The notes beneath the pieces were generated by a model. It had not been told where the DNA came from, made no database searches, and saw only the letters and a program-made list of their open reading frames with translations. A DNA stretch of 64,000 bases from positions 10,503 to 74,502 of the forward strand of contig JBPOJQ010000003.1 of assembly GCA_052033375.1 (NCBI GenBank), in the 5' to 3' direction. Of the stretch, positions 28,255 through 64,000 are shown piece by piece. This DNA is from Candidatus Magasanikiibacteriota bacterium (GTDB taxonomy: Bacteria; Patescibacteriota; Patescibacteriia; Magasanikbacterales; UBA922). Made by a program: the position numbers and the translations under genes. How positions within the stretch are numbered: position 1 is the stretch's first letter; each line of letters starts with the position of its first letter.

Positions 28255-28468
28255 TATAGTAGAAGTGTAATCAAAATTATCTACTGAGTCAACAGACCTA
28301 TCTTTTATATATCTTCATGTCTAGAGCCCATACAATAAAAAAATAATAATTTTTGTATACACCACTATGATTGACGTCCACTACATTTTCTGTTATGTTT
28401 ATCGACTCATCAGTCTGTCCTATTGATCGGCTGGCGAGACAACCCGACTCTCAACCAGAGGAGACCGA

Positions 28469-29171
28469 CATGCGAGATAATACGGCGTTTGGATACCCCA
28501 TCGCGACCCTCGAGAATCTCCATGAGGTTCTCACGAATCTCAAAATCGAGCGATGGAACTCTATCGCACCCACAGTCCTCCTCGAGGACTACCTCAAGCG
28601 TGATCTCTCTCCTGAGGATCGTACAGACCTCAGATATGTTCCTAAGACTGAAGTTCTCTTCCTCGAGAATCCTCACACCAAGGAGAGATTCACAGCCTTC
28701 CGGAACACTGGCAAGCCGTGGGTGACGGTCTTTGCAGTCATCCCCCATGAAGGCCAACTGCTCGTGCCCGTGACGGTCGAGTTCAAGCAAGGCTTCGGCG
28801 AAGTGGTGCTCGTGCCACCGAGTGGCGTCAAGAGCCGCACTGATCACTCATTCGCTGATACGGCGCGCCGCGAGTTCGAGGAGGAGACTGGATTCAAACT
28901 CGATCATGTGATCCCGCTCGCGGGAGGCATTATGCAAGGTGCCACAGTTCGACAGAACACGGGTGGTATCCATCCCTTCCTCGGAATCCTCAAGGATCCG
29001 ATCCAACGCGGTCCAAGCAAGCTCGATCACCATGAACTCCTCCGGATCATCCTGTTCCCGCTCGACGAGTGGCAAAAGGTGGTCTTGAGCGGACTGACCT
29101 ACGACATGGCATCGACTGTTGTCACGTACCATGCTCTTGCTCTACTACGTACGATGGGCATGGTCAAGTAG
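28469..29171 (+). CDS. NUDIX-hydrolase-like protein in GC-rich island 1
   Basis: Degenerate Nudix box GVKSRTDHSFADTARREFEEETGF (G-x5-[ED]-x8-REFxEExGF). A strong SD GGAGGAG lies 7 nt upstream of ATG 28469, so the ORF-track start at 28371 is probably too early. GC content is much higher than in the flanks. Confidence 0.5.
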
Positions 29172-29202
29172 AACATCTCTCGGCCCCCTGGGACCGAACA
29201 AG

Positions 29203-29245
29203 CCCCCCGGTGTGCATAAGGCACGCCGGGGGTTATTCATTTGTA
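29203..29245 (+). terminator. Rho-independent terminator after the NUDIX-like gene
   Basis: An 11-bp GC stem ccccggtgtgc/gcacgccgggg with one G-U pair and the loop ataag, followed by ttattcatttg. Confidence 0.6.
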
Positions 29246-29367
29246 ACCTACATTATTTCTATGCTACATGGTTTGACAGATACCCTTATTTTTCATACAC
29301 TATACTGGTAAATTACTATATCTTTTGAAGGAGTTTGGTGACTAATCTACCAAAATAAATATTAACT

Positions 29368-30297
29368 ATGAACATTTTGATTACTGGGGGTGCGGGCTAT
29401 ATTGGATCACTCGTAGTTTCAGAACTTTTGAAAAACGGACATACTGTACGCGTACTTGATAACCTTACGTTTGGACTTAATTCCCTCATGCCTTATTTTA
29501 TTGACGATCATTTTGAATTTATCAAAGGAGATATCAGAGACACTGACATCGTCAACAAATCAGTTCAAGGTATGGATGTCATTATCCACTTGGCTGGAAT
29601 TGTAGGCGCCCCAGCATGCAAACGGGATCCTAAATTAACTGAAGAAGTAAACTACCAAGGGACAGTTAACATCAATAATGCAAGAAAAGAATCGCAGAAA
29701 TTATTCTATGCATCAACCGGAAGTGTATATGGAAAAGTGGAAAATATCTGTACTGAAGAATCTCCTACCAATCCACTTTCTACATACGGAGATACTAAAC
29801 TACGAGGAGAATTAGAGGTAATGAGTAAAGGAAATGCAATCGCCTATCGATTTGCAACTGCATTTGGATTGTCAGCCCGCCCACGCTTAGATCTACTGCC
29901 TAATGATTTTGTATTTAATGCACTCAAGAATAAATATTTAGTAGTATACGACAAACACTTCAAACGAACATTCATCCATGTGCGAGATATCGTCAATTCA
30001 TATGTATTTGGAATTGAGCATTTTGATAGCATGAAAAATGAAGTTTACAACGTGGGATCAGAAAAAATGAACAAGACCAAAGAAGAAATCGCTCAAATGG
30101 TACGGGAGAAAATTAATTTTGAAATCCTCTATGTTGACCAGGGCATTCCTGACCCTGATCAAAGAGATTATGAAGTTTCATATCAAAAAATCCGTAACAA
30201 AGGCTTTGAACCTACTATCAGTTTTGAAAAGGGTCTCAACGAAATGATTAAGGGTCTTGAGCATCTGCGTATTTCAAATCCTTTTTCAAATGTATGA
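29368..30297 (+). CDS. NAD-dependent epimerase/dehydratase (SDR)
   Basis: ILITGGAGYIGSLVVSEL Rossmann motif with a YxxxK region. Confidence 0.75.
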   Translation: MNILITGGAGYIGSLVVSELLKNGHTVRVLDNLTFGLNSLMPYFIDDHFEFIKGDIRDTDIVNKSVQGMDVIIHLAGIVGAPACKRDPKLTEEVNYQGTVNINNARKESQKLFYASTGSVYGKVENICTEESPTNPLSTYGDTKLRGELEVMSKGNAIAYRFATAFGLSARPRLDLLPNDFVFNALKNKYLVVYDKHFKRTFIHVRDIVNSYVFGIEHFDSMKNEVYNVGSEKMNKTKEEIAQMVREKINFEILYVDQGIPDPDQRDYEVSYQKIRNKGFEPTISFEKGLNEMIKGLEHLRISNPFSNV

Positions 30298-31220: not shown

Positions 31221-31231
31221 TTTATAACATT

Positions 31232-32365: not shown

Positions 32366-32366
32366 C

Positions 32367-35894: not shown

Positions 35895-36619
35895 ATACGA
35901 GGTTTGCGGACTACTGCAAAAAGAGACAGCCCAAAAGGAAGCCTATGAAATAACCTGAAACACCCCAATTCAATACTGTACAACGTTCGCATAACAAAAT
36001 TTATCACCCTAGAAGCTGGTCGCACATCTGATTCACCATTATTTTTGAAAAAACGTTGTATTACACGCATACCCGCTGCCGGCGCGAGAATAATCAAATG
36101 TATCCAACTTATAAACTCCACAGTACATGATGTAGTCAATACCTTTCTTAACCCCTCCTTGCTGTAGCGACGAACATGATGGAGGGCATGGTCATGGTAG
36201 GAAAATAATGATTGATGCGCTGGCACCGTAACAATAAATATTCCTCCGGGTTTTAACACCCGCGCCACCTCCTGTACAGCTGCCGCATCATCAGTGATAT
36301 GTTCCAATACATCTGACGCAATTACAACATCAAATGAACTATTTTGAAAAGGAAGCTTTTCAGCGAATCCATGATGCACGGTTAGATTCTTTTTTCTACA
36401 ATACTGTAAGGCATTCTCACTCATATCAACTCCTTCTACCGTGTAATTTTTTGATCGGACAAAATCCATGATAGCGCCTGTACCACAACCGATATCTAAA
36501 ACACTCGTACCCGCTACGGCGTATCGATCGAGTGCATTCGAGATATAATCACGTTTTGCAACAAACCACCAGTGACTTTTTTCAACCATGTCCATTTTTG
36601 CGTATTCTTGTAATTCCAT
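35891..36619 (-). CDS. Class I SAM-dependent methyltransferase
   Basis: VLDIGCGTGAIMDFV...GVDMSENALQYCRKK. Confidence 0.7.
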   Translation of the reverse strand: MELQEYAKMDMVEKSHWWFVAKRDYISNALDRYAVAGTSVLDIGCGTGAIMDFVRSKNYTVEGVDMSENALQYCRKKNLTVHHGFAEKLPFQNSSFDVVIASDVLEHITDDAAAVQEVARVLKPGGIFIVTVPAHQSLFSYHDHALHHVRRYSKEGLRKVLTTSCTVEFISWIHLIILAPAAGMRVIQRFFKNNGESDVRPASRVINFVMRTLYSIELGCFRLFHRLPFGLSLFAVVRKPRI

Positions 36620-45577: not shown

Positions 45578-45754
45578 AGAAGACGGAAATATTATGAAAG
45601 TGTTACAGTTGGTCGAATACTATCATCTGGAGATACCCCAGACTATAGCATAAAAATGCCAAATAATAAAGGCTTACTGTACACATATATACGGTACCGC
45701 CCAAACACCGTAACAGGGTAAAATAAGCCCAAACATAGCCTTATTTAGGCTATT

Positions 45755-45895
45755 TTGTATATACTATTGTATACATTTTTGTTATATTTGTATATACTAT
45801 TCTATACAAATAGGCATCTGAACGTGCCCCCATCAGGGGTCTACCCTTGACAAAAACCGTATAATTGGTAGTATTTGTATATACAAATCTATACT
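45755..45895. promoter_or_regulatory. Three copies of a 21-bp palindromic operator-like motif TTGTATATAC-N5-TATAC(A/T), with inverted half-sites TGTATA/TATACA
   Basis: Copies lie at 45755-45775, 45788-45808 and 45875-45895. The first two are 33 bp apart centre to centre. The third overlaps the leader or first codons of the HTH gene. Confidence 0.55.
45847..45874 (+). promoter_or_regulatory. Sigma-70-like promoter for the HTH gene
   Basis: -35 TTGACA at 45847-45852, a 16-nt spacer, and -10 TAGTAT at 45869-45874. The third operator copy lies immediately downstream. Confidence 0.45.
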
Positions 45896-46285
45896 ATGGT
45901 AATTCAACCCCCCATCTCAACACCTGACCATAAAGAGATAATCAGAGTCTCAATTTCAGAAGCAGCACGTCTTTTTGGTGTTAATCCACAGACCATACGA
46001 CGAGCTATTAGAGACCAAGAGATCACATACGTCGTAGTCGCTGGTAGATATAAGATCAATTTTGAAAGTCTGGTGAAATGGTCACAGAGGAAAACCACGG
46101 TCAAAAACAAGACTGAAAAACACGGTATCGGACAATTCGTAGACAAATGGAAGATCTCTAATACCCTCTACTCTCCGAGTAAAAAAGCAGTGACTAAGAC
46201 AACGGTAGTACCTGAATCATTACCTGCTGAGCAACAAACAGACAACGTATCTACATCCGAGATCTCAACTAATACTGAGAATTAA
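45896..46285 (+). CDS. Excisionase-family (HTH_17/MerR-like) DNA-binding protein
   Basis: RVSISEAARLFGVNPQTIRRAIRDQEITYVVVAGRYKI matches the excisionase-type HTH. The ORF-track start at 45875 is a TTG inside the operator, so ATG 45896 is preferred. Confidence 0.55.
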   Translation: MVIQPPISTPDHKEIIRVSISEAARLFGVNPQTIRRAIRDQEITYVVVAGRYKINFESLVKWSQRKTTVKNKTEKHGIGQFVDKWKISNTLYSPSKKAVTKTTVVPESLPAEQQTDNVSTSEISTNTEN

Positions 46286-46371: not shown

Positions 46372-46437
46372 AATCTGTATACGCTAGGAGACGCCTAGTC
46401 GTACGATCTTTTCAACCTACCAAAAAGGGACCCCCCC

Positions 46438-47328
46438 ATGCTTCGCTCGATGTTTCTGTGCATCTTCCTCTTCCCGTTCATGAGCTGCGACATCACCATC
46501 CCGAAAAGCGGGAAAGTGATCCGAGGAACCTATCACAGTGCCGCAGACACCACCGGCGGCGAGGACACTGCCCCAGTCGACGTGTCTACGTCGACGGAGG
46601 CTGATGGCACCTCTGTCACCACTCCCCAGGACGTCGGCACCTCGACGGCGACCGACACCACCAGTACCTCGCTCGGTGAAGACACCGCCGACTCTCATGA
46701 CACCGAGAATCCGGTACCACCGACTCTCCGCGTCTGCAGCACAGACGGGGAGTGCATCGACGAGTACCCGAACAACGGGTTCGTCTGCGACGACGACGGA
46801 CACTGCACGCACCCGTCCTTCTCCTGCGAGACCGACATCGACTGTCCTCCGGACAAAAATGTCTGCAACGGCATCAAGGTGTGCCTTGATCGAAGCTGCT
46901 ACCTGACCGAAAACCCTGACTGCGATGATGGGAATCGCTGGACAGGCGACTTCTGCAGTCCAGCAGACGGCTGTGGACACTACAACATCGAGTGCACGGA
47001 CGACCAGGGCTGCGGGGAGGACGAGTACTGCGATACCGAAAGCAGGCGTTGCGAACCGATCGGCGCATGCGATAGTCCGGACGACTGCGATGACGGAAAT
47101 GCGTGCACCTATGATCGGTGTACGCTGACCGAGTGCTCAAACATACCTATCGCATGCGCCGACTGGGATCCGGACACCATGGATGTCTGCGACCCGACGT
47201 TGATGTGCCTCTTTACCGAGGGGTGCACCACGAACGCGAACTGTGTCGACGATGACTTCTCAACCGAAGACGTCTGCGATGACGGTTTCTGCAGGCACAT
47301 CTGCAAGGACGGTGAATGCCCTCCTTGA
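46438..47328 (+). CDS. Cysteine-rich secreted lipoprotein with Myxococcus-type cysteine-rich repeats (GC-rich island 2)
   Basis: Lipobox FMSC with Asp at +2 (CDIT). Asp/Thr-rich linker. Repeated CDDGNxCTxDxC spacing: DCDDGNRWTGDFCSP, DCDDGNACTYDRCTLTEC, and others. Very GC-rich. SD AAGGGA upstream. Confidence 0.65.
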   Translation: MLRSMFLCIFLFPFMSCDITIPKSGKVIRGTYHSAADTTGGEDTAPVDVSTSTEADGTSVTTPQDVGTSTATDTTSTSLGEDTADSHDTENPVPPTLRVCSTDGECIDEYPNNGFVCDDDGHCTHPSFSCETDIDCPPDKNVCNGIKVCLDRSCYLTENPDCDDGNRWTGDFCSPADGCGHYNIECTDDQGCGEDEYCDTESRRCEPIGACDSPDDCDDGNACTYDRCTLTECSNIPIACADWDPDTMDVCDPTLMCLFTEGCTTNANCVDDDFSTEDVCDDGFCRHICKDGECPP

Positions 47329-47382
47329 GGGCGTAGTGGTGGGTGAAGACACCTAAAGAGGATCCCACTACTGGGTCATGCG

Positions 47383-47430
47383 CGCCACACCAGCGCGCAT
47401 GACCCACTTCAATCTATTTTGCAATTTGCA
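47383..47430 (+). terminator. Rho-independent terminator
   Basis: Perfect 13-bp stem gggtcatgcgcgc/gcgcgcatgaccc with a 7-nt loop, then acttcaatctattttg. Confidence 0.6.
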
Positions 47431-47557
47431 GAAATACTACCTGTTGTATATCAAAGCTATGTCCACATACTACAACACGCACTATTTCTGCGCATTGGAA
47501 AACTGAAAAGACACGGTGTTTTTTCAGACAAGACGACTCACCCAACAGAGGAACACA

Positions 47558-48285
47558 TGTGGCGCATTGCTCTTTCTTTGGTCATCATGTTACTCGTGGC
47601 CTGCGACATCACGGACGGTGAATCATACGAGTCCCTCTCGATACACAGAGAGGATGTCACAGACACATCGAGTGACGGTGTACTCCAGCCAGCAGATGAC
47701 ATCATCCTCGAACATGGGCTCATGCGTGTCGAGAAAATCGACACTGCTCTTAGCCATCTATTCACCCCCGACACCACGTCTGATTCCACATCTGATGTAC
47801 AGGCACCCGACACTGCCGTACCAGACGAAATCGAGGTACTGTTCACAGAGACTATCCCCTGTACAGAGGACTGGCACTGTGCACCTGGCAAAGAGTGCAC
47901 TCCTGATGGACTCTGCATCACACAGCTCGTGTGGATCGCTGTCATTACAGGGTCCGACGGCTCTCATCCGCCAGTACTGGACCACAGCGGAGAGGAAGTC
48001 ACACTCTGGTATGGACGTGAACCATGGACAGAGACACATCAGGTTCCCTACACAGGATGGCTCCCGCTCGCAGAACTCTGCGAGAGTGGGATTGAAATGG
48101 AACTCCGGAATCCGTCTGACGACGGGTATCCATATGGCGAAGGATGTGTGACTGATTTCAAGAATCTGACACCCTACCTATTCGCCAAGCGACTGGAGTT
48201 CACCATCCATGAGAGCGGTACTGGAGACATGTGTCCAGAGATGCTCCACATCGCTCGAGATCAACTACCCTGCGACAAGGACTGA
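47558..48285 (+). CDS. Secreted lipoprotein of the same family, with the shared C-terminal LWYG module (GC-rich)
   Basis: Lipobox LLVAC with the same CDIT continuation. SD AGAGGAA 5 nt upstream. The C-terminal VTLWYGREPWTETH aligns with KVKLWYGNHTEPETY of the 60165-60902 gene. The ORF-track start at 47419 is AT-rich leader. Confidence 0.6.
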
Positions 48286-48298
48286 CGCATCCGGAGAG

Positions 48299-48375
48299 TG
48301 ACGCACGATACACCGCGTCGCTCTCCGGCCCACACACTTTCGAACTACTCATATTGAGTGGTTTTTTGTTATAAA
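48299..48375 (+). terminator. Terminator region: a GC hairpin (14-bp arms, one mismatch) followed by an AT hairpin and a T-run
   Basis: ccggagagtgacgc...gcgtcgctctccgg, then actca-tat-tgagt ggtttttt. Confidence 0.5.
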
Positions 48376-53850: not shown

Positions 53851-54933
53851 TTAATGAGATGAAACAAATGATGCATATATTTGTGCAATGGCACGATAAT
53901 GATCGTGTATATCGCCCTGTTGCTGTACATACTTCTGTGCTGTCTTTCCGACATTCGATATTTTTTCTGGATTCTCAAGCACCTGTCCAAGCAGACGTTT
54001 CAATTCTTGAACATTGCCTGTTTCGAACAGATACCCTGTGCGTGCATTCTCGATGATCCCCGCCCCCGCAGCAGTGCTTGCAATAACCACCCGACCTGCT
54101 GCCATAGATTCGAGTACTACGAGACTCATACCTTCCCATAACGACGGCTGTAGTACGATATCGATATCTTTGAGGGCCATCGCCATATCACTCTCATATC
54201 CATGCCAGACGATACGATGCGCAATTCCCAGTGCTCGCGCAGTATATTCCAATTCAGACTGAAGACTTCCCTCTCCATACACATGGTACTCCCACGGAAG
54301 ATGCTTTAATTCAGCGAGTGCACGCAATGCGTACACGTGCCCTTTTTGTTCTTCCAATCTTCCAATTGTTGCAAGTGATATATGTGTCGCATCTATTTTT
54401 TTTGTAGTGACTCTGCGCCATTTTTTCGTCTCAACTCCGTTATAGATAATGCGTATTTTTTCTTCAGGAATATTGAAATGGTCACGCGAATATACTGCCA
54501 CCGAATCAGATACGGCCACGACTGCGTCAACTTTTTTCAAACATATTTTCCATATCATACGCTTCATAAACGATGTATGATATTCCACATTATGCACCGT
54601 CGAAATCCAGATAGTCTGAGGGTATATCCGTTTCCATGCATATCCAATGATGTCACCCCCCATCAGATGGGTGTGAATGATATCTGGCTTGATGCGCAAC
54701 AACTCACGTTTCAAAAATTTCCACACACCCCACCGTCCCCCATGCACCTTCCGACTTCCCACAATCAATCGCGCTTTTGTCTGCTCGAACAATGGACGCA
54801 ATGCACCGTCATCGACACTACTCATCACATATACTGAAAAATCTTTTTTGCTAAATTCTTGTGCATACTGCAACACCAGACGTTCAGCGCCACCTGGATA
54901 TAATCGTGGAATGACTTGTACAATCGTGGTCAT
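53851..54933 (-). CDS. Glycosyltransferase family 4
   Basis: From the internal Met: MTTIVQVIPRLYPGGAERLVLQY, plus C-terminal GT4 motifs. The upstream extension of the ORF (MCCIAMNAK...) is unlikely to be real. Confidence 0.7.
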   Translation of the reverse strand: MTTIVQVIPRLYPGGAERLVLQYAQEFSKKDFSVYVMSSVDDGALRPLFEQTKARLIVGSRKVHGGRWGVWKFLKRELLRIKPDIIHTHLMGGDIIGYAWKRIYPQTIWISTVHNVEYHTSFMKRMIWKICLKKVDAVVAVSDSVAVYSRDHFNIPEEKIRIIYNGVETKKWRRVTTKKIDATHISLATIGRLEEQKGHVYALRALAELKHLPWEYHVYGEGSLQSELEYTARALGIAHRIVWHGYESDMAMALKDIDIVLQPSLWEGMSLVVLESMAAGRVVIASTAAGAGIIENARTGYLFETGNVQELKRLLGQVLENPEKISNVGKTAQKYVQQQGDIHDHYRAIAQIYASFVSSH

Positions 54934-54940
54934 AAATCTA

Positions 54941-56422
54941 TTAGGTAATCTCGGTATCGATTTTATATTTATTTGGTCTGAAATGAGTATAAAATGCATC
55001 TCCTTCGCGTTCATGGCGATACAGCACATGCGCCGATATCGCCAACATCAATGGCACCCACATACGCGCTGAATAATATTGGGTATTAAACAGTTGAAAA
55101 AATAAAGGGGCGATAATAAGACACAGACACAAATGTGCAACCGCGCGAGCCTCGAGAGTATATTCTTTTGATTTGATACGCGCGTATACCGAGGATATAA
55201 GTATACCAATAAATAACCCAAATGTAGCGACCCCTACGATCCCCTGTTCGGATAAAATTTTCATGAGAATACTATGTGCATCAATTGGATCGCCAAATTC
55301 ATATGTAAAATAACGTACATCTTCCAATCGTCCAACGAAGGTCCCCACTCCTTGTCCAAACAATGGATGTTCTAGAAAAAAATTCCAGGCGACTTCTGTC
55401 AGCGTGATACGTGCACTATTCGAAGACGAGACGACAGCGCTCTGCAAAAGCATACCCATATATACCCCCGCAGGAATAAAAAATATAAGTATACCAATCA
55501 TATAGCCTCTTATTTTTTTCCATTTGATATGTGATCGAAATATATACAGTGCAAGTACTCCCTCGACAATAAGCGTAAGCCAACTTGCCCGAGAAAAGGT
55601 AAGAAACGCAGTAACGCCACAGATAATACTCGCACAAATATACACAAGCCTGCGCACATCAGTCTTTGCAGCATAGGCAAGATATATTGCAATTGGCAAC
55701 GCCACCACCAGCACTTCGGCAAGCAAAATATGGCCACTAAAGACATCATAATTAAATGGTTGCCAACCGAATACTGAAATCGGCACGGCACGCGCAATGC
55801 TTCCGCTTCCCCCGACGACAAAAGATAGTAGCCCCAATAGTGCACCAATAACACCCATCCACACTACCACTTCGAGTGCATGGGATAGTGTTTTTTTGGT
55901 ACGTATAATATTTGCACCCAAAACCACGTATGCAATATACACAAATACGATAAATCGTATGGTGTAAGAAATACTCGGCTGCAATTCCCATCCTCCCACA
56001 TTCATCAATGATACTGCGGCAGATGCTACAAACAATCCATACCATGTAATCTCTGGAAGATTAATCCGATGTTTTTCTCCATATAACCATTTGCGTATTA
56101 AATAGAATATATATGAGCCAACCATAAGTAGTGCCCACATATCGACCATTGGCGCATACAATTCGAATATTTCAGAAGATGATCCAAGTATTCCACGAAA
56201 TATGTCGGCATGAAATTCCCACCCAATAAGTGGATAGAGAATAAGCAGAATATAGAGGCCTGCTTCCAGATGGTACGAAAAAAATAACATAACCAAACAT
56301 ATCAACAGTCCCAAGACCGCTATATTTCCCTTGAGCATCAACGCAAGTAGTATCAGAGCTATGAGCGCACCCACTCCAAATATTCCTGAAAATTTTGATG
56401 TTTCAGACTGAGGAATACTCAT
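54941..56422 (-). CDS. O-antigen ligase/polymerase-like (Wzy_C) polytopic membrane protein
   Basis: About 12 transmembrane helices with a Wzy_C-like loop FLTFSRASWLTLIVEG. Confidence 0.55.
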   Translation of the reverse strand: MSIPQSETSKFSGIFGVGALIALILLALMLKGNIAVLGLLICLVMLFFSYHLEAGLYILLILYPLIGWEFHADIFRGILGSSSEIFELYAPMVDMWALLMVGSYIFYLIRKWLYGEKHRINLPEITWYGLFVASAAVSLMNVGGWELQPSISYTIRFIVFVYIAYVVLGANIIRTKKTLSHALEVVVWMGVIGALLGLLSFVVGGSGSIARAVPISVFGWQPFNYDVFSGHILLAEVLVVALPIAIYLAYAAKTDVRRLVYICASIICGVTAFLTFSRASWLTLIVEGVLALYIFRSHIKWKKIRGYMIGILIFFIPAGVYMGMLLQSAVVSSSNSARITLTEVAWNFFLEHPLFGQGVGTFVGRLEDVRYFTYEFGDPIDAHSILMKILSEQGIVGVATFGLFIGILISSVYARIKSKEYTLEARAVAHLCLCLIIAPLFFQLFNTQYYSARMWVPLMLAISAHVLYRHEREGDAFYTHFRPNKYKIDTEIT

Positions 56423-57501: not shown

Positions 57502-57547
57502 ACAATTTCATCTAAGTATATCATATGCAGAAGAAAAATTAAAAAGA

Positions 57548-57582
57548 AAAAATAACAAACAAAAAACCGCATAGTGCGGTTA
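57548..57582 (-). terminator. Rho-independent terminator of the GC-rich lipoprotein gene
   Basis: aaccgca-tag-tgcggtt hairpin. On the minus strand it is followed by ttttttgtttgtt. Confidence 0.6.
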
Positions 57583-57592
57583 TTCTAGCGTG

Positions 57593-57640
57593 CCCTTCTA
57601 CTCTATCTTCAAGATAATACTTGAATTCAGAGTAGAGGGG
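57593..57640. repeat. Inverted repeat (12-bp arms, one mismatch, 24-nt AT-rich spacer) at the left edge of GC island 3
   Basis: cccttctactct...agagtagagggg, with a nested ttcaag/cttgaa palindrome in the spacer. Confidence 0.55.
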
Positions 57641-57766
57641 AGGAAGCGGTCGCTGTAGTAGCGAGCGCACTTCCCCCAGTTTGTGTGATTGTCTTCGAAC
57701 ATTCACCTACAGAAGCGAATCACACGTTCACTTCGAGATGCTCCTGCAGTCGTCGCAGAAGAAGTT

Positions 57767-59815
57767 CTAGGGTGCCGCGGGGCATCCCAGGTCGTTGTCA
57801 CCGTTCTCGTCGGAGAGCCACAGGTTGCCCGGCGGAGCGCCGTCGCATGCCTGCGGATCACGAACCTCGAAGTCGTTCGCCTTCGTGACACCATTGACCA
57901 TGACGGTCAGGGTGGACTTCGAGGGGAACCCCGGGTTGCAGTCCCAGAACAAGTTCGTGCTCGGACGGTTGACGGCGATGTCGACGCCCCAGCTGCATGC
58001 GAGCGTCTTCGGCAAGGTCCCGTCGAAGGGCATGTTGCCGGAGATCGTCGTCCCGTTGTAGTAGAAATTGACCTGCCAGGTCTCCGACGTGTCGGTCGAC
58101 GAGACCTGCACGCGGACACCTTCCACGTGCTGGCAGACGAGCTCGACGCAGGTGTCGTAGGTCAGGGGATTGCTGTCGTTGCAATCCGCGTTGACCGTGC
58201 AGTTCCCCGTCGGCGTGTACACGCAACCCGTCGCCGGATCGCAGGTGTCGGTGGTGTTGGAGTTCCCGTCGTTGCACACCACCGCGGTGTGCTGCACCCC
58301 CATCTCGGGATCGCACGCGTCGATGGTGCAGGCGTTGTTGTCGTTCGTCGTCACCGCCATGTGTTGGCAGGTGTTTGCCGAACAACTGTCGATCGTGCAG
58401 ACGCTTCCGTCATCGCACGTGAGCGGCGTACCCGCGACGCACCCGGAAGCCGGGTTGCACGTCTCGGTGCCGTTGCATGCGTTCCCATCGTCGCAGACGA
58501 TCGCGACGTGTGTGACCGCGCCGGTCTCGGGATCGCACGCGTCGATGGTGCAGGCGTTGTTGTCGTTCACCGGATCGACCTTCTGCGCCATGCACTGTCC
58601 ATTGACGGGATTGCACGTGAGGCCTCCGCAGAGGTCCCCGCCGCAGTCCTTCTCGACGTGGGTGACCACGCCGGTCTCGGGATCGCACGAATCGATCGTG
58701 CAGTTGTCCCCGTCGGTCAGGACCTTCCAGCCCGTCTCGACGCACACATGTTCCGCGCACGCCATCTCGGTGACGCACGCGGTGGTGGGCTCGCAGTCGT
58801 CGTCGTCTGCGCATTCGCACGCCTCGGACGGCATGAACGCGTACTCGCAGACGCCCTGCAAGTTGCAGGTGTCGGTGGTGCACGTGTCGCCGTCGTCGCA
58901 CTCGGCCCCCTCACCTTCCGAATCGCAGTACACGAGACACGAGAGGTTCGGCAGATCCCAGGGCAACACGTCGGGGTAGAGGTCTCCGTCGCAGTCGACG
59001 TCGCAGACGTCGCCCATGCTGTCCTCGTCCATGTCCTCCTGCCCCGCGTTCTTGAAGCGGGGGCAATTGTCCTCGCCCTCGCAGATGGGCATCACCAGCG
59101 CGTTTCGCGGCATCGAGACGGGGGCAGCTTCGTCGCAGAAGCTGTCGTTGTCGTCGTCGGTGTCGCAGACGTCGCCCCAATCGTCGCCGTCCAGGTTCGC
59201 CTGGTCGGGGTTGACGTTGTCGGGGCAGTTGTCGACGGGGTTCAAGACCCCGTCGCCGTCGACGTCGTTGTCGCAGACGTCTCCGACGAAATCGTCGTCC
59301 AGGTTCGCCTGGTCGGGGTTCGGATCGGCGGGGCAGTTGTCCTCGCCCGCACACATCTCGACCTGACCCGGATGGGATTTCTCCCACCCGTCCTCGTCGA
59401 GCCAGGGGTCGCAGAAGCCGTCGTTGTCGTTATCGTTGTCGCAGACGTCTCCGAAGAGATCCCCGACCACGGTGACGTTGCCGTCGGCACCGGCCAGGAC
59501 CTGGTCCAGGTTCGCCTGGTCGGGGTTCGGATCGGCGGGGCAGTTGTCGACGGGGTTCAAGACCCCGTCGCCGTCGCGATCGGTGTCGCAGACGTCGCCC
59601 ATGCCGTCGCCGTCGGTGTCCACCTGGTCGGGGTTGTACCACCCCAAGCAGTTGTCGCGGTTGTCCGCGACGTCGTCACCGTCGGTGTCCGCGGCCTTCG
59701 TGAAGCCGAGCCCGCCGTCGTTGCCGGATTCGTCATACGCACACGCCGCCATGAACCCCATGGCAAGGGCACCCAAGATGCAGAGCACCCGGGTGTTGTT
59801 GTTCTTCAGACGCAT
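57767..59815 (-). CDS. Secreted lipoprotein with about 8 thrombospondin-type-3 calcium-binding repeats, many Myxococcus-type cysteine-rich repeats and the shared C-terminal module (682 aa)
   Basis: Signal and lipobox ...GFMAAC. TSP3 units DTDGDGMGDVCDTDRDGDGVLNPVDNCPADPNPDQANLD are repeated. Cysteine-rich units DNNACTIDACDPETGAVTHVAIVCDDGNACNG are repeated. SD GGAGGAAGG lies 4 nt upstream. Very GC-rich. The C-terminal LFWDCNPGFPSKSTL aligns with TYWGCNDGLPSKRDI of the 60165-60902 gene. Confidence 0.7.
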   Translation of the reverse strand: MRLKNNNTRVLCILGALAMGFMAACAYDESGNDGGLGFTKAADTDGDDVADNRDNCLGWYNPDQVDTDGDGMGDVCDTDRDGDGVLNPVDNCPADPNPDQANLDQVLAGADGNVTVVGDLFGDVCDNDNDNDGFCDPWLDEDGWEKSHPGQVEMCAGEDNCPADPNPDQANLDDDFVGDVCDNDVDGDGVLNPVDNCPDNVNPDQANLDGDDWGDVCDTDDDNDSFCDEAAPVSMPRNALVMPICEGEDNCPRFKNAGQEDMDEDSMGDVCDVDCDGDLYPDVLPWDLPNLSCLVYCDSEGEGAECDDGDTCTTDTCNLQGVCEYAFMPSEACECADDDDCEPTTACVTEMACAEHVCVETGWKVLTDGDNCTIDSCDPETGVVTHVEKDCGGDLCGGLTCNPVNGQCMAQKVDPVNDNNACTIDACDPETGAVTHVAIVCDDGNACNGTETCNPASGCVAGTPLTCDDGSVCTIDSCSANTCQHMAVTTNDNNACTIDACDPEMGVQHTAVVCNDGNSNTTDTCDPATGCVYTPTGNCTVNADCNDSNPLTYDTCVELVCQHVEGVRVQVSSTDTSETWQVNFYYNGTTISGNMPFDGTLPKTLACSWGVDIAVNRPSTNLFWDCNPGFPSKSTLTVMVNGVTKANDFEVRDPQACDGAPPGNLWLSDENGDNDLGCPAAP

Positions 59816-59868
59816 TTGGCCTTCCTCCGTAGTGTGAGGCCGTTGAACTCCAGCAGTGACACTGTGTC

Positions 59869-59938
59869 TCAGCTAGAGGGTGGCTATCGATACAAGATAT
59901 GTTGCATATATCAGTATCTGCACCCATCCTCTAGCTGA
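59869..59938. repeat. Inverted repeat (15-bp arms, one mismatch, 39-nt spacer) upstream of the 57767-59815 gene
   Basis: tcagctagagggtgg...ccatcctctagctga. Confidence 0.55.
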
Positions 59939-60164
59939 ACATAGAACTTATGTGATTATAATGAACATACACACTTGAGAATGATTCTCCAGTGGCGCAT
60001 ACCAGATACCTCTCTAGATATCCGATATGCGTGGACACAATCGTACCAACATATCAAGAAAAGAGTATTTTGTCAATATAATTCTATAAAGTGAATTAGT
60101 GGTGCTCGCGAAAGGAGGCGGCATAGCGTATACGCCATCCTACCCTTCGCGAGACACCCGCCCC

Positions 60165-60902
60165 TCAGTCACATGCGAGCTGTGCCTGCAGGAAGTAGAG
60201 ATCCCCCTCTCCCTTCCCACCGCACGCAGTGTTGGGGACCTCCCATCCGAGATCCGCGGCAAAATAACCGAATGCCTCTGCACCGTCGATCTCGACCGCG
60301 ATATCCCTCTTCGAGGGAAGACCATCGTTGCATCCCCAGTATGTCCCTGGAAACTCCTGGTCCTCTACCGCGAGAGTGAGCATGCCGTTTTCGACGCAGA
60401 GATCCATCTTCCGGATCTCGAAGCTCGAGTTCATGGGATAGGTCTCTGGCTCGGTGTGATTCCCATACCAGAGCTTCACCTTCCCCGGACGCTCTGCGCG
60501 TACGGTGAAATGAGTCACCCGGTGTACACTGGAGCATGCCCCAGTGTCGGGGACGCACTCGTCATCCGTCCAGCGATTCCCATCGTCGCAGTCGATTGCT
60601 CGATTACGACATGTGCCCTGGATGCAGACATCGATCGTGCACATGTCGCCATCATCGCAGGGGTTTCCCTCTGCAATGAACTCCTCGATGTCGCACTCAC
60701 TGGGCGACGCCGGAGGAAGCTCGATCTCGTACCGATCACGGATGACCCGCGAATCAGCATCTTCGACTTCCTGGAGTATATCCTCGATCCCCGTCGACGT
60801 ATCGACCTGGATCATGGTCGTACCCCTCTGTCTCATGTCCTCGATGCACGCAGTCGTAATCACGAAGTAACAGACGCACAAACGAAACATCTTAGAAAGC
60901 AT
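60165..60902 (-). CDS. Cysteine-rich lipoprotein, a family member with the shared C-terminal module
   Basis: Start at ATG 60902 (MLSKMFRLCVCYFVITTAC lipobox) with SD GAGGGGA upstream. The ORF-track start is a GTG 12 nt earlier. Motifs NPCDDGDMCTIDVC and DCDDGNRWTDDEC. C-terminal LWYG...YWGCNDGLPSK. Confidence 0.6.
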   Translation of the reverse strand: MLSKMFRLCVCYFVITTACIEDMRQRGTTMIQVDTSTGIEDILQEVEDADSRVIRDRYEIELPPASPSECDIEEFIAEGNPCDDGDMCTIDVCIQGTCRNRAIDCDDGNRWTDDECVPDTGACSSVHRVTHFTVRAERPGKVKLWYGNHTEPETYPMNSSFEIRKMDLCVENGMLTLAVEDQEFPGTYWGCNDGLPSKRDIAVEIDGAEAFGYFAADLGWEVPNTACGGKGEGDLYFLQAQLACD

Positions 60903-60990
60903 GTGTCCCCTCACGTATTGGTATGAACTGGCGTGTAGAATTCCTCTACCGTTGATATACCATCATCATATGGATATACCCAAGGTAATG

Positions 60991-61017
60991 GAATTTAAAA
61001 AACCCGTGGATACGGGT
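60991..61017. terminator. Bidirectional rho-independent terminator
   Basis: aaaaaa-cccgt-ggat-acggg-ttttt. Confidence 0.55.
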
Positions 61018-61365
61018 TTTTCCCGCGTAAAAGTCGATCTTCTCCGCGGCTCATTTTCGTAACCCGCTTCATAGTAAAGCAGATACACCATTGTACCATA
61101 CCACACACAGGTGTTGTATGACTGGGTCAGCATAGTATGCCTATTCTGACCGTGTTATTTCCCACATCTCTTTACCAATACTCACTAGTCGCTCACTGTA
61201 ATCTGAGTTCTGAATTTTGATAAAGATATGTTGGAATGGGAGAGGGGCTCGTCAATGAATCGTTTGCACGATCCACTGAACGCTAGGCCCCGCTCCCGCA
61301 ACTTGTACCATAGTGAACCCTGAGTCTTGTTGCTAAACTACTCAGGGTACGTACCGATATGTCCT

Positions 61366-62373
61366 CTACTCCTCGGGGCAGTAGAAGTTGGTCCACCGGT
61401 TCAGGTCGCAGACGAGCCAGCAGCCGTGCTGCTCGGGCGTCGTCCCGACGAATACGTCCGCAGGCGCGTAGTTGTAGTGCGCGTCTGCGTTCGTGACACA
61501 ACGGTCCTCGCCGTTGTCGTTTCCGACAACGAAGTCAGACCCGACCTGGTTCACGAACTGCTGGACATTGAACAAGGCAACCTCACCCTCACAAATCGTG
61601 AGGGTGTGGCAGGAGCCAGCACCGTCCGGGCAGGACATCCAGATGGCCTCGGGCCACCCGAGGGAGCCCGCACCGCCAACCGACGCCTGAAAGCGCCAGT
61701 TCTGCTTCACCGTGAAGGTGAAGCACTCCGGCGAACCCTGATCTTCGCAGCGGTTCGAGGAGTTGTTGCACTCCTCGCCATCCCCGCAGTCGCCATCCTC
61801 GACGCAGCAACCGGGGATGGGCGTGTTGTAGCACACACCACTCACCGTGTTGCGCCAATCTTCCGTGCAGATGTCTCCATCATCGCACGTGAAGGTTGCG
61901 TCATGGCAGGCGCCCCACTGGCCCCAGTGGCCGGCGGAGCACGTCCGCTCCTGCGTCCCCGTGTTACCGGTGCCGCAGGACTTCGACTGCTCGGACCCAT
62001 CGACGCACTCGTCGGGGTCTGCGCAGGTGCCCCACTGGCCCCAGTGGCCGGTGGTGGCGCACGTCCTCGTCTTCGTCCCGCGACCATTGAGGCCGCAGGA
62101 CACCTGCTCGGTCGCGCCGACCGAGCACTGCTGGGTGGGGGGGAACGGCGTGCTGTCGCACACGTTCCCTCTGCCGTCGCCGTCCGCGTCCGCCTGATCC
62201 TGGTTCGGATCGGCGGGGCAGTTGTCGGCGTCGTCCTTGACGCCGTCGTTGTCGAAGTCGGTGTCGGTGTCGGTGCAGTCGTCGCAGCCCTCCTCGGGCT
62301 GCTTCTCCCAGTCGCACGCGACCGCGACGATGATGAACGACGACGACAGGACGAACATGGTGATGTTCTTCAT
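61366..62373 (-). CDS. Lipoprotein with TSP3 repeats and a cysteine-rich C-terminal region (family member)
   Basis: Lipobox VAVAC with Asp at +2. TSP3 units DFDNDGVKDDADNCPADPNQDQADADGDGRGNVCD. Cysteine-rich C-terminus. SD GGAAAGGAA upstream. GC-rich. Confidence 0.65.
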   Translation of the reverse strand: MKNITMFVLSSSFIIVAVACDWEKQPEEGCDDCTDTDTDFDNDGVKDDADNCPADPNQDQADADGDGRGNVCDSTPFPPTQQCSVGATEQVSCGLNGRGTKTRTCATTGHWGQWGTCADPDECVDGSEQSKSCGTGNTGTQERTCSAGHWGQWGACHDATFTCDDGDICTEDWRNTVSGVCYNTPIPGCCVEDGDCGDGEECNNSSNRCEDQGSPECFTFTVKQNWRFQASVGGAGSLGWPEAIWMSCPDGAGSCHTLTICEGEVALFNVQQFVNQVGSDFVVGNDNGEDRCVTNADAHYNYAPADVFVGTTPEQHGCWLVCDLNRWTNFYCPEE

Positions 62374-62459
62374 GACTATTCCTTTCCCCCTGTCTGAGGG
62401 GGACTCTCGAGTGATCTCGCCGGAAACCTTCCGGCGAACATTGTAACGCTATGGTACTT

Positions 62460-62512
62460 CCGCAGCGTGTAGAGAACATATTTTTGTAAAAACACACTCT
62501 CTACACACTGCG
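62460..62512. repeat. Inverted repeat (16-bp arms, one mismatch, 21-nt AT-rich spacer) upstream of the 61366-62373 gene
   Basis: ccgcagcgtgtagaga...tctctacacactgcgg. A second, perfect 7-bp inverted repeat tacagaa-tttc-ttctgta lies at 62531-62548. Confidence 0.6.
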
Positions 62513-62749
62513 GATTTGTAAGGTACATGTACAGAATTTCTTCTGTATATGAAGTAGTGTCCACCTGTCTACTCCCTATACAATAGAAATACGTATCATA
62601 ATTTTTCTCACCTTATTCCCCACATCCATATGATATGAAGAGTAAGTTGAGCTCTGGAGAACGAGAAGGTGCCACCCTTCATACGTTTTCCAGAGCGATC
62701 GATTCCCGAGCCCTCATTTTCCTCCGAAGAGGTATTGAGGAGCTCCTGA

Positions 62750-63577
62750 CTAGAACCGATATCCGGCGGTGAACACACCGCCGAGACCAAAGGAGATCTC
62801 CTCCGGTCTCATCTCGACACCGAGGATGGCGTCGAGACCGAGCACCGCTCTCCGATCTTCCCCGAGGAAGTACCGGATTGCAGGCCCGAGGCCCGCCGTG
62901 AAGTGATCCGTTCGGCTGAAATTACCGTGATCGACCAGCGTGCCGACCACGATCCCACCCGTAAGGAACCCTTCTCCCCAGAGGTAACCGGTCCGTGCGG
63001 ACCAGCCGAACCCATGGGGCGATGCCCCCGCACCGGCGACGAGGAAGAATTCCCCGCCCTGGTTCGGAAACACCAGACCGACTTCGACGCCAGCTGAGAG
63101 GCCGACGAGATCACTCGCCAGCCACCCGCCGAGGCCGAACATCGGCCCCCCGAGCTTGTCGATCTTGCCCTTGATGCCGGCGACCTCGACCTCGAGCTTG
63201 TCGATCTTGCCCTTGATGCCGGCGACCTCCGCACCGAGCTGTTTGCACTGCCCGAGCAGGGTCACCAGGTCCGCGGACGGACCCTTGACCTCCATGAGCG
63301 CCCCCTCGAGGGACGTGATCTTCCCCTCGAGGGACGTGATCTTCCCCTCGAGGTTCTGATCTGTCCTGCGGAGAGCTCCTGCCCTGCGGAGAGCTCCTGC
63401 CCTCCACTTCTCCTTCTCGACCTCGAAGCGAATCGCCTCGAGGTCGACGAGTGCTGCGCGAGCCTTGTCGACCGCCCCCTTTCGGATCTGGTCGAACTGC
63501 TCTTGGGCGGTGGGCTCTGCAGCCTGCACCGGCGACGCGACCAGCATCAGCATGGCCGCAACGATCATCATCATTCC
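62750..63577 (-). CDS. Secreted coiled-coil protein with in-frame tandem repeats and a Gly-rich beta C-terminal domain ending in Phe (outer-membrane-barrel-like)
   Basis: Probable start at MMMIVAAMLMLVASPVQA-AEP (signal peptide). The ORF-track start at 63895 adds an Arg-rich extension that looks artefactual. Repeats: AGALRR x2, LEGKITS x2 and a 14-aa unit built on AGIKGKIDKL x2. C-terminal ...GGVFTAGYRF. Confidence 0.5.
   Translation of the reverse strand, partial: GMMMIVAAMLMLVASPVQAAEPTAQEQFDQIRKGAVDKARAALVDLEAIRFEVEKEKWRAGALRRAGALRRTDQNLEGKITSLEGKITSLEGALMEVKGPSADLVTLLGQCKQLGAEVAGIKGKIDKLEVEVAGIKGKIDKLGGPMFGLGGWLASDLVGLSAGVEVGLVFPNQGGEFFLVAGAGASPHGFGWSARTGYLWGEGFLTGGIVVGTLVDHGNFSRTDHFTAGLGPAIRYFLGEDRRAVLGLDAILGVEMRPEEISFGLGGVFTAGYRF
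63152..63401. repeat. Nucleotide-level tandem duplications inside the coiled-coil gene
   Basis: A 42-nt unit x2 at 63152-63235 (36 nt identical), a 21-nt unit x2 at 63303-63344, and an 18-nt unit x2 at 63366-63401. Confidence 0.7.
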
Positions 63578-63621
63578 CTTCACGGCATTTCTCCTTCCCC
63601 TCCGTGAGGAGGGGACGTGAC

Positions 63622-63945
63622 TCAGTTGTTGCTGCCCTTGTCGATCTGGCCGCCGAAGGCGACCGTTCCGAGACGCCAGCACCGTGCTGCCGCCTCGTCG
63701 TCTTCTGCCTGGATCAGGCACTTCGCTGCCCTCTGGCACTCGAGTCCCTGATCCTCGTCGCCGGTCTTGTCGACGAATTCGTACACGCACTCCTTGAGTG
63801 CGAGTTCGAATTTCTCGTCCACGTTTCTGCCCTTGGCGGCACCGCGGAAGACCGTCTCGATCCCACCCTCGAAGGTGGCGACGACGACCGACCACTCCTG
63901 ATCGGTGAAGAAGCCACCGGGGCGGAGCCCCTTGACCTGCGTCAT
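63622..63945 (-). CDS. Hypothetical GC-rich ORF; may extend beyond the window edge
   Basis: Open frame with codon-like periodicity in a GC-rich context. No recognisable motif. Confidence 0.25.
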   Translation of the reverse strand: MTQVKGLRPGGFFTDQEWSVVVATFEGGIETVFRGAAKGRNVDEKFELALKECVYEFVDKTGDEDQGLECQRAAKCLIQAEDDEAAARCWRLGTVAFGGQIDKGSNN

Positions 63946-64000
63946 GACGCAGGTCCCGAACTCGTCCCCGGACAGCCCTTTGCAGGGATCCGCCGGGTTC

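Follow-up and report, generated by a model that had tools for sequence, protein, structure and literature searches.

The 64,000-nucleotide (nt) stretch of DNA analyzed here (the window; contig JBPOJQ010000003.1 of the Candidatus Magasanikiibacteriota assembly GCA_052033375.1) raises the question of why three GC-rich segments, whose genes start behind Shine-Dalgarno (SD) sequences, lie in an AT-rich locus whose other genes lack such sequences. An earlier note on this DNA had explained these islands by recent transfer from a high-GC Gram-negative donor. This explanation is mostly at odds with our results, since the island slots are shared by relatives, a Nudix hydrolase gene in one of them has diverged together with its neighbors, and GC-richness ends with the transcripts. 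On balance, we favor the reading that the islands are an old, lineage-wide class of self-contained, GC-maintained and SD-dependent single-gene units of Magasanikbacteria-like (ABY1-type) Patescibacteria.

The overall GC content of the window is 42.6%, and its sliding GC profile has three raised regions, at about 28.4-29.25 kb, 46.4-48.35 kb and 57.6-64.0 kb (islands 1, 2 and 3). The GC content at third codon positions (GC3) is 0.331 +/- 0.034 in the backbone genes (n = 44, maximum 0.41), as against 0.63, 0.74, 0.53, 0.89, 0.68, 0.88 and 0.70 in the seven complete island genes (z = 5.8-16.2). The GC-rich segments described earlier are therefore real, but the third is not one block: it consists of four or more separate GC-rich genes, with AT-rich spacers that drop to 0.36-0.47 GC. 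In each unit, the GC-rich stretch extends from about 60 nt before the start codon to the 3' hairpins, and the 5' leaders and 3' untranslated regions (3'UTRs) are likewise GC-rich. Codon preference is inverted in all amino-acid families (island versus backbone: GAC 0.72/0.24, AAG 0.85/0.23, ATC 0.87/0.22, CTC 0.59/0.17). The commonest third base in island genes is C (0.48), and G-ending codons are favored in them too (GAG 0.77, AAG 0.85, CAG 0.87). The codon-usage comparison that had been proposed thus bears out that the island genes are foreign to the backbone as a compositional and translational class. The island proteins are enriched in Asp (11.4% versus 4.8% in the backbone) and Cys (6.2% versus 1.0%), as well as in Gly and Thr. 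Amino-acid content as the sole cause of the GC-richness was ruled out, as GC3 and fourfold-degenerate sites shift most and codon preference is inverted in every family.

To compare translation signals, the start of each island gene was taken as the first ATG or GTG giving a signal peptide or a conserved N-terminus; the starts at 47557, 60902 and 63583 were picked inside longer open reading frames (ORFs) by signal peptide and SD, which carries a mild selection bias. A purine-rich SD lies 3-8 nt upstream of the start in 7/7 island genes, and its duplex with the anti-SD has a mean energy of -8.0 kcal/mol, with all seven at -5.0 kcal/mol or stronger; the weakest is the AAGGGA of the gene at 46438. 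In the backbone the mean is -0.1 kcal/mol, one of the 44 genes reaches -4.4 kcal/mol and the other 43 are weaker. Both observations of the earlier note, a backbone without SD sequences and a canonical SD at every island gene, are thus upheld. The difference is significant against the backbone (Mann-Whitney p = 1.5e-5) and against random positions within GC-rich DNA (p = 1.7e-5). Automated gene calling across loci, which takes the best SD among 40 candidate starts and inflates backbone scores, gave p = 0.046, and the comparison rests on curated or database-called starts. A T at position -1 (TATG or TGTG) is present in 37 of the 44 backbone genes (e.g., 3996, 5426, 6361 and 7227) and in none of the seven island genes; this T may represent a lineage-specific start-codon context. 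Backbone genes also lack SD sequences in L008 and L013, two of the related loci used for comparison (designated by L-numbers), and the SD-less genes of L008 carry T at -1.

The window holds neither a 16S rRNA gene nor ribosomal protein genes. The 16S 3' exon of L008 reads GGATCACCTCCTTTCT, with the canonical anti-SD (CCUCC) intact; as judged from sequence, the canonical anti-SD is kept in a Patescibacterium whose bulk genes lack SD sequences. The L008 16S gene (5936-9506, minus strand) is complete; a group I intron interrupts it some 40 nt short of the 3' end, and LAGLIDADG ORFs have been called there.

Each island gene is also bounded by signals of its own. A sigma-70-like promoter is predicted in the AT-rich spacer of each unit, and one to three 3' hairpins follow every island gene (z = -3.9 to -6.5), several of them with a U-run. 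All four terminators that had been claimed (29203-29245, 47383-47430, 57548-57582 and 60991-61017) exist; the last hairpin, at about 60997-61022, is weaker alone (z = -1.3) and is followed by a U-run. We found no Rfam family (leader or riboswitch) in the window, no tRNA, no direct repeats flanking the units, and no integrase among the roughly 30 window proteins scanned with Pfam, a set that covers about half of the backbone ORFs. The earlier statement that no integrase, tRNA or target-site duplication is visible therefore holds in the tRNA, repeat and Pfam searches. Comparison with a phage collection gave no DNA similarity, and the single match in a plasmid collection (68% identity over 3% of the query) is at chance level. 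A diversity-generating retroelement or phase variation was also considered as a candidate and rejected, as the window contains no silent cassette array and the Pfam-scanned proteins include no reverse transcriptase.

The simplest unit is island 1, which comprises the following features:

28371-28399, plus strand: predicted sigma-70-like promoter TTGACG-N17-TATGTT, about 100 nt upstream of the start codon
28457-28463, plus strand: SD sequence AGAGGAG, 6 nt before the ATG at 28470, duplex energy -9.1 kcal/mol
28470-29171, plus strand: Nudix-family hydrolase gene, 233 amino acids, GC 0.55, GC3 0.63
29204-29232, plus strand: 12-bp G/C hairpin terminator followed by UUAUUCAUUU, fold z = -3.9

The encoded protein matches the Pfam NUDIX family with 23.2 bits (cut-off 21.1), and its Nudix box REFEEETG is invariant across 9 homologues (R134, E135, E138, E139 and G141). 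These 9 homologues were found among 5.8 billion clustered proteins, and the sole named source is a Patescibacteria metagenome-assembled genome; a metagenome-contig scan with the Nudix alignment returned generic Nudix-box matches alone (29-43% identity). Promoter, SD and terminator are conserved in the window, L010 and L008. L010, from a different sample, carries a syntenic Nudix gene that is 85% identical and adjoins the same methyltransferase, with a GC3 of 0.67 between flanks of 0.34-0.38 GC; the L008 gene has a GC3 of 0.77 and is SD-led. The orthologous L010 and L008 units show ATTGAC-N17-TATGTT/TACATT at an equal distance, and the terminator hairpin of L010 has survived substitutions in its two arms. 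The orthologous SD sequences read CAGGAG (L010), ACAGGAGAA (L008) and CAGGAGG (L023). Since this SD is kept in four genomes whose proteins are 44-85% identical to that of the window, we argue that it is functional. Two Nudix homologues (L010 and L023) lie in AT-rich polysaccharide-biosynthesis loci resembling the window backbone. In L023 (1896-3587), the Nudix gene is mildly GC-enriched (GC3 0.47 versus 0.26-0.39) yet has a strong SD, and the AT-rich gene preceding it is also strongly SD-led, indicating that SD and GC-richness can be uncoupled.

To date this unit, we compared divergence at fourfold-degenerate sites between the window and L010. The whole 3.3 kb is colinear at about 85-92% nucleotide identity, and the divergence of the Nudix gene (0.30) equals that of its two backbone neighbors (0.29 and 0.32); the gene is therefore older than the split between the two lineages. 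Between either of these and L008, fourfold sites are saturated (72-75% different), and the GC content at these sites (GC4) is still 0.66-0.77.

The backbone genes of the window form a locus for cell-envelope polysaccharide, with a sugar transferase, epimerases, a dehydrogenase, an aminotransferase, a flippase, Wzy-like ligases, glycosyltransferases, a GHL15/FG-GAP protein and an extracytoplasmic function (ECF) sigma factor. A scan with the GHL15/FG-GAP protein, with one genome per species, returned five loci at 38-73% identity, one of which is Candidatus Magasanikbacteria. The neighborhood of L013, a named Magasanikbacteria locus, is as in the window (large protein, sigma factor, HTH_17, DUF11 protein, GT4 and GHL15); the gene order of the window is common to L002 and L003, and L004 shares several neighboring genes with the Magasanikbacteria locus L005. 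Since L013 and other relatives share this backbone neighborhood, the window organism is, on gene content and order, a Patescibacterium of the ABY1/Magasanikbacteria type.

In L002, the backbone proteins are 54-81% identical to those of the window, the gene order matches exactly, and both slots are GC-rich there as well: the gene next to the same glycosyltransferase encodes a thrombospondin-repeat protein (GC3 0.85), and the one that lies between HTH_17 and GT4 a lipoprotein (GC3 0.64). L011 and L012, from other samples, carry three consecutive GC-rich orthologues of island 3 with SD energies of -9.5 to -11.0 kcal/mol and AT-rich spacers. L013 harbors an SD-led Dicty_CTDC gene with a GC3 of 0.84 and another GC-rich gene (GC3 0.94) in a backbone of GC3 0.32-0.52 without SD sequences, and L008 has, besides the Nudix gene, an SD-led gene with a GC3 of 0.86 among SD-less genes. 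In L022 (Ca. Azambacteria), GC alternates between 0.35 and 0.70, and most of seven GC-rich genes are SD-led. In contrast, the thrombospondin-repeat homologue of L014, a 2.9-Mb non-Patescibacteria genome, matches its flanks in composition, and the Myxococcota-like L024 is uniformly 75% GC. The islands are thus not peculiar to the window genome, as the same slots are GC-rich and SD-led in L002, L010, L013 and L011. GC mosaicism with SD-led genes, which the earlier note had said would speak against transfer if it were found throughout the genome, is present at the level of the lineage.

L004 (7836-9656) and L005 (11201-12942) have GC-rich genes (GC3 0.62-0.76) directly after the GHL15/FG-GAP gene; these are unrelated to the island genes of the window and represent a further conserved slot with different cargo. 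L006, a 21.9-kb locus tied to the group by a 38% match to the GHL15/FG-GAP protein, has about 52% GC throughout the stretch seen, with no mosaicism, and therefore the two-class composition is not universal among relatives.

A two-state relaxation model of backbone fourfold sites gave a per-lineage retention of 0.29 since the split between the window and L002. Under this model, a gene acquired before that split, even with a GC4 of 1.0, would now have at most about 0.56. The GC3 values observed in the two slots are 0.89 and 0.85 (window and L002, respectively) for one and 0.74 and 0.64 for the other. Because these exceed the modeled GC4 ceiling, either a force has continued to maintain GC content or the slots have been refilled independently. 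The island proteins also evolve fast: dN/dS (the ratio of nonsynonymous to synonymous substitution rates) is 0.58, 0.22 and 0.16 in three island pairs, the first being the 682-amino-acid gene of island 3, versus 0.05-0.06 in backbone neighbors. Identity between the window and L011 is a mosaic over 5 kb, with successive values of about 50%, 75-93%, 96% (leader), 73-87% and 95-98% (the C-terminal third of the 682-amino-acid gene), which argues for recombination between diverged lineages and possibly for mobility of the units. The mosaic fits published evidence that Patescibacteria acquire genes mostly from within their own phylum (PMC12455944).

Islands 2 and 3 encode mainly secreted proteins and contain the following features:

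46438-47328, plus strand: island 2 gene 1, putative lipobox (FMSC/D) Cys/Asp-rich secreted protein, 296 amino acids, GC3 0.74
47372-47406, plus strand: 14-bp perfect hairpin after island 2 gene 1, z = -6.0
47557-48285, plus strand: island 2 gene 2, putative lipobox (LVAC/D) secreted protein, 242 amino acids, GC3 0.53
48291-48364, plus strand: pair of 3' hairpins of island 2 gene 2, with a U-run behind the second one (48342-48364), z = -6.5
57565-57680, minus strand: three tandem 3' hairpins after the 682-amino-acid gene, the last (57565-57581) followed by a U-run, z = -6.4
57767-59815, minus strand: 682-amino-acid putative lipobox (MAAC) gene with thrombospondin type 3 and Dicty_CTDC Cys-rich repeats, GC 0.65, GC3 0.89
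59816-60076, minus strand: promoter-like TTGACA-N17-TATGTT (60076-60048) and leader of about 230 nt, with a leader hairpin at 59869-59938 (25-nt arms)
60101-60158, minus strand: long 3' hairpin after the 245-amino-acid gene, z = -5.3
60165-60902, minus strand: 245-amino-acid putative lipobox (TTAC/I) secreted protein gene, GC3 0.68, SD GAGGGGA at 60906-60912
60991-61022, minus strand: hairpin and U-run terminator after the 335-amino-acid gene, preceded by further hairpins at 61230-61365
61366-62373, minus strand: 335-amino-acid putative lipobox (AVAC/D) Cys-rich gene with one TSP3-like repeat, GC3 0.88, SD GGGGGAAAGGAA at 62379-62390
62750-63583, minus strand: gene for a protein with a signal peptide, a coiled-coil stalk and a predicted C-terminal 8-stranded OmpA/OmpX-like barrel, 277 amino acids, GC3 0.70
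63622-64000, minus strand: GC-rich ORF upstream of the barrel gene, which may run off the window; no family match

Five of these proteins have hydrophobic N-termini ending in a lipobox-like Cys (FMSC, LVAC, MAAC, TTAC and AVAC, read by eye), and four of the five are Cys/Asp-rich. Asp at position +2 had been taken as a mark of diderm bacteria; it is present in three of the five lipobox proteins and, because the +2 sorting rule is not known outside Enterobacterales, gives no hint of a donor. Island 2 is embedded in the backbone, as the earlier note held, but its left neighbors are the HTH_17 gene and the ECF sigma factor rather than a glycosyltransferase. Its first gene has a weak SD (AAGGGA, 46425-46430), a Dicty_CTDC match below threshold and a positional counterpart in L002 (11193-12344, GC3 0.64, 29-35% identity); the second has the SD AGAGGAA at 47547-47553 and no Pfam match. 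A lipobox-CDIT N-terminus is common to the two proteins.

The 682-amino-acid protein of island 3 matches Dicty_CTDC (1.2e-34, 118.1 bits, cut-off 27) and TSP_3 (2.1e-18, 66.1 bits, cut-off 25), while the Pfam repeat scores of the other three Cys-rich island proteins are below the cut-offs. Its similarity to the NCBIfam model MtsC (NF047638) is partial (114.3 bits, far below the cut-off of 350), and an exact-sequence look-up of the protein gave no match. Orthologues in L011 and L012 are 80-82% identical, and the 3' end of the gene together with its 3'UTR is 85% identical to L002. The gene has the SD GGAGGAAGG at 59820-59828 and a promoter about 260 nt upstream of its start, ahead of the structured leader. 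This leader is 91-96% identical in L011, above the N-terminal two-thirds of the coding sequence (CDS; 73-87%) and below or at the level of the C-terminal third (95-98%). The 245-amino-acid protein has an orthologue in L011 (2818-3555) that is 79% identical and led by the SD AGGAGGGGA, and in the slot of the 335-amino-acid gene L011 carries a 588-amino-acid paralogue-like gene with 36% identity.

In three units, a short G/C hairpin whose 3' arm is SD-like lies directly 5' of a second, free SD: at 63591-63610 (CCCCTCC-tcac-GGAGGGG AAGGAG) and 62379-62400 (TCCCCCT-cagac-AGGGGGA AAGGAA) in the window, and at about 550-589 in L011 (CCCCGA-ttgaa-TCGGGG AGGAG). Such a hairpin could be a 5' stabilizer or a translational control element. 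SD-sequestering hairpins were rejected as a general regulatory device, being present in some units and inconsistent overall.

The last complete protein of island 3 is the one of 277 amino acids. Its gene has the SD GGAGGGGAAGGAG at 63591-63603 and 3' hairpins at 62640-62749, and is probably co-transcribed with the ORF at 63622-64000. The N-terminus reads MKGMMMIVAAMLMLVASPVQA/AEP and the C-terminus FTAGYRF, and the C-terminal F/W is kept in relatives. AlphaFold2 left the C-terminal domain unresolved from the single sequence; from an alignment of 8 sequences, it modeled eight antiparallel strands of 10-16 residues each with a predicted local distance difference test score (pLDDT) of about 90-96. 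The top Foldseek matches of this model are OmpA, OprF, NspA, Ail and OmpX (E = 1.8e-5 to 7.5e-4, probability 1.00), so that the earlier remark on a barrel-like C-terminal Phe finds support in a predicted fold. No outer-membrane protein model of Pfam or NCBIfam matches the protein, even at E = 1. About seven distant full-length relatives were found among 1.84 billion representatives, and a word-indexed search of 5.8 billion proteins, which missed even the protein itself, and an exact-sequence look-up were both negative. The stalk contains in-frame tandem duplications at 63148-63231 (42 nt, two copies, 93% identity) and 63282-63353 (21 nt, two to three times), which yield EVAGIKGKIDKL twice and LEGKITS twice; as these duplications are recent, stalk length appears to be evolving. 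Patescibacteria are not known to have an outer membrane.

In the reading that we favor, the islands are an old class of single-gene units. Each unit combines a predicted sigma-70-like promoter, placed in an AT-rich spacer, with a structured leader, a strong SD, a GC-rich CDS and one to three 3' hairpins. The bulk genome is AT-rich, mostly operonic and translated from SD-less starts that typically have T before the start codon. Ribosomes could still pair with SD sequences, the canonical anti-SD being retained, and the SD would select the start on mRNAs too GC-rich and too structured for the SD-independent route. We infer this need for an SD because SD-independent initiation relies on AT-rich, unstructured start regions. 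The hairpins would terminate and protect the transcript. The cargo consists mostly of putative exported, fast-evolving Cys/Asp-rich repeat lipoproteins of the calcium-binding type and the coiled-coil/barrel protein, with the Nudix enzyme as well, and the exported proteins probably form the interface of the cell with its host or surroundings. Inheritance would be vertical at fixed slots, with recombinational exchange among related Patescibacteria, and high GC content would be kept by selection on the transcript or synonymous sites and/or by GC-biased conversion tied to frequent recombination. A stronger version, which we regard as decidedly unlikely, posits two regimes in one genome, an AT-rich SD-independent bulk and a GC-rich SD-dependent set of stable mRNAs for host-interface proteins, gated by access to the anti-SD by analogy with the bS21-dependent switch of Flavobacterium. 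In its boldest form, the stalked barrel would not serve the envelope of the symbiont itself but would be an exported anchor that inserts into the outer membrane of its diderm host.

Several points weigh against the reading that the units are old and GC-maintained. The occupants of the L002 slots are 29-35% identical to those of the window, as independent replacement would also give; the Nudix pair of the window and L010, taken by itself, disfavors neutral decay from an ancestral GC4 of about 0.84 only marginally (P = 0.054); and the identity to L011 collapses beyond the terminator, where the flank differs from the window, so that units may move. High-GC Myxococcota, too, commonly have proteins with thrombospondin type 3 and Dicty_CTDC repeats, and identity to these is similar (L024), and an OmpA-like barrel, odd in this phylum, points to a foreign origin of at least the barrel gene. 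In addition, the anti-SD was read in the relative L008 rather than in the window organism, the comparison took in about 10 loci rather than whole genomes, and the nature of the GC-maintaining force is postulated.

A rival reading is continuing re-import, in which hot-spot slots are refilled from high-GC, SD-using diderms (possibly hosts) or from a circulating GC-rich pool, so that GC content and SD would always be fresh donor signals and no maintenance would be needed. This would account for slot occupants that are far less similar between the window and L002 (29-35%) than the backbone proteins around them (54-81%), for the divergence mosaic and differing downstream flank of L011, for a diderm-type barrel in one gene, for the frequency of thrombospondin type 3 and CTDC proteins in Myxococcota, including a 75% GC genome, and for GC3 values too high for neutral survival since the split from L002. 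We nevertheless consider it unlikely. No homologue above about 45% identity was found outside Patescibacteria-like contigs for any island protein among 5.8 and 1.84 billion proteins; the Nudix gene has co-diverged with its neighbors; in relatives, conservation of the gene extends to its promoter, leader, SD and terminator; the 3' end and 3'UTR of the 682-amino-acid gene are homologous in L002; AT-rich spacers are unexpected in an imported high-GC block; and the Pfam scan and repeat search gave no integrases or attachment repeats. Besides an 80% identical orthologue on a Logan contig, the 682-amino-acid repeat protein has matches that cover a third to half of its length at 30-51% identity (mostly 30-45%), with Magasanikbacteria, Azambacteria, Bradymonadia, Polyangiaceae and Bacteroidota as named sources; at 30-45%, Patescibacteria and Myxococcota are mixed among them. 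No donor stands out in these searches, the Myxococcota- or Bdellovibrionota-like one guessed at earlier included: the one named homologue of the Nudix protein is from Patescibacteria and the barrel protein is a near-orphan; an ancient diderm-bacterial origin of the repeat and barrel families is plausible. One or a few recent transfers from such a donor into the window genome are quite improbable: the strong deviation in composition and codons, the SD sites and terminators, the OmpA-like barrel and the sub-cut-off similarity to myxobacterial MtsC (114 versus 350 bits) are what transfer would leave, but relatives from other samples have the islands at the same positions, the Nudix gene matches the backbone in synonymous divergence, the GC-rich composition does not extend beyond single genes, and the searches gave no donor homologues, no mobility genes among the Pfam-scanned proteins, and no tRNA or target duplications, the HTH_17 gene belonging to the backbone. 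Recent transfer is already contradicted for island 1 and the slots of the other two islands.

The remaining alternatives dispense with a donor lineage or with the islands themselves. The composition could be a by-product of proteins rich in Asp, Cys, Gly, Thr and Pro combined with very high expression, which would bring C-ending codons, SD sequences and terminators. The enrichment of Asp, Cys, Gly and Thr, the predominance of C at third positions (0.48) and a preference for CTC over CTG in the GC-rich genes of 5/6 other Patescibacteria sets are in keeping with this, although a codon-dialect test of C- versus G-ending codons over seven Patescibacteria sets and L024 gave a weak CTC-over-CTG difference that does not discriminate; CTC/(CTC+CTG) is 0.52-0.80 in those five sets, 0.47 in L004/L005 and 0.51 in L024. 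We think this by-product improbable, as GC3 itself rises from 0.33 to values of up to 0.89, codons ending in G are favored as well, the leaders and 3'UTRs are GC-rich too, and the Nudix enzyme and the 242-amino-acid protein are GC-rich though not Cys-rich; we know of no translational selection that approaches a GC3 shift of such size. Finally, the contig comes from a metagenome, its last 1.6 kb (62.4-64.0 kb) is without independent junction support and the exact protein at 62750-63583 is not on record elsewhere, all of which would suit foreign GC-rich fragments joined to a Patescibacteria contig by assembly or binning. Independent Logan contigs from the window's own sample (including L001), however, run through the left and right junctions of island 1 and the left one of island 2 at 100% identity, which makes a chimera very unlikely for these two islands; the same junctions recur in L002, L010 and L013, and every unit is flanked by AT-rich spacers with promoter-like sites, so that we regard this explanation as very improbable for the locus as a whole.

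Our search of the literature found no description of GC-rich, SD-led genes in such a pattern. Classical genomic islands, including those of Patescibacteria (PMC12455944), resemble the units in deviating composition and codon usage and in fast-evolving surface or accessory cargo. In contrast to them, the units are gene-sized, lack integrase, tRNA and direct repeats, occupy slots that are shared with relatives and have diverged along with the backbone; their GC-richness outlasts synonymous saturation, and no donor is identifiable. Bacteroidia have SD-less genomes whose anti-SD, although retained, is sequestered by bS21, bS18 and bS6, with a strong SD at a single gene, rpsU (PMC7797042, PMC9976891, PMC13000453). 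The likeness lies in bulk genes without SD sequences, a CCUCC retained in the relative L008 and a strong SD in a small minority of genes, which suggests a separate initiation route. The differences are that the phylum is another, the SD-led minority consists of GC-rich secreted-protein genes and the Nudix gene rather than rpsU, and the start context of the window backbone is T at -1 rather than the upstream adenines described in Bacteroidia (PMC13000457).

The cargo invites other comparisons. The units share lipoprotein-type products, high dN/dS, internal repeats, mosaic divergence and conserved loci with variable contents with surface families of the mycoplasma type; the variable lipoproteins of mycoplasmas are fast-evolving, recombining surface families of small-genome, host-associated bacteria. 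The window differs in having no phase-variation switch or silent cassette array, and in units whose composition and translation signals depart radically from the genome. Myxobacterial TSP_3/Dicty_CTDC surface proteins such as MtsC are similar to the 682-amino-acid protein in having repeats above the Pfam cut-offs and in being secreted, acidic and of the calcium-binding type, but no MYXO-CTERM tag was detected in the latter, and its best full-length relatives are on Patescibacteria-like contigs. The predicted fold of the barrel protein shares eight long antiparallel strands, a C-terminal aromatic residue and a signal peptide with the OmpA/OmpX/NspA/Ail family; it differs in lacking a sequence-family match and in carrying an N-terminal coiled-coil stalk instead of a periplasmic domain.

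Compositional islands are routinely read as recent transfer, and here the signature persists at fixed positions past synonymous saturation. Because it persists in relatives, transfer detection based on GC content or codons would mislabel a stable gene class in this phylum. The results point to a second lineage, besides Bacteroidia, in which the SD has been mostly dispensed with while the anti-SD is kept and used by few genes, and GC3 combined with SD offers a simple sequence rule for candidate host-interaction genes in uncultured, probably episymbiotic cells. They also prompt the question which function an OmpA-like barrel could have in a phylum that is not known to possess an outer membrane.

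Some observations concern the backbone and the database records. The gene that the earlier note had regarded as a mobility-related excisionase is a conserved backbone gene:

45896-46285, plus strand: HTH_17 gene (Pfam HTH_17, 4.8e-8), AT-rich, without SD and outside the GC-rich class

It is 75% identical in L002, and L013 carries it at the same position. Three repeats of about 30 nt (TTTGTATATAC.A.TCTATAC), partly palindromic, lie at 45745-45894, directly 5' of this gene, and look like putative operator sites for its autoregulation. The records CAZMEW01, CAZCHJ01, CAZXEV01 and CAZQUL01 (L002, L003, L004 and L006, respectively) are titled 'uncultured Gammaproteobacteria', and these titles look wrong. 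Lastly, the longest-ORF calls of two backbone genes, 53851-55029 and 54941-56422, overlap by 89 nt; since the L002 orthologue of the former has 360 amino acids versus 392, its true start is probably a downstream ATG.

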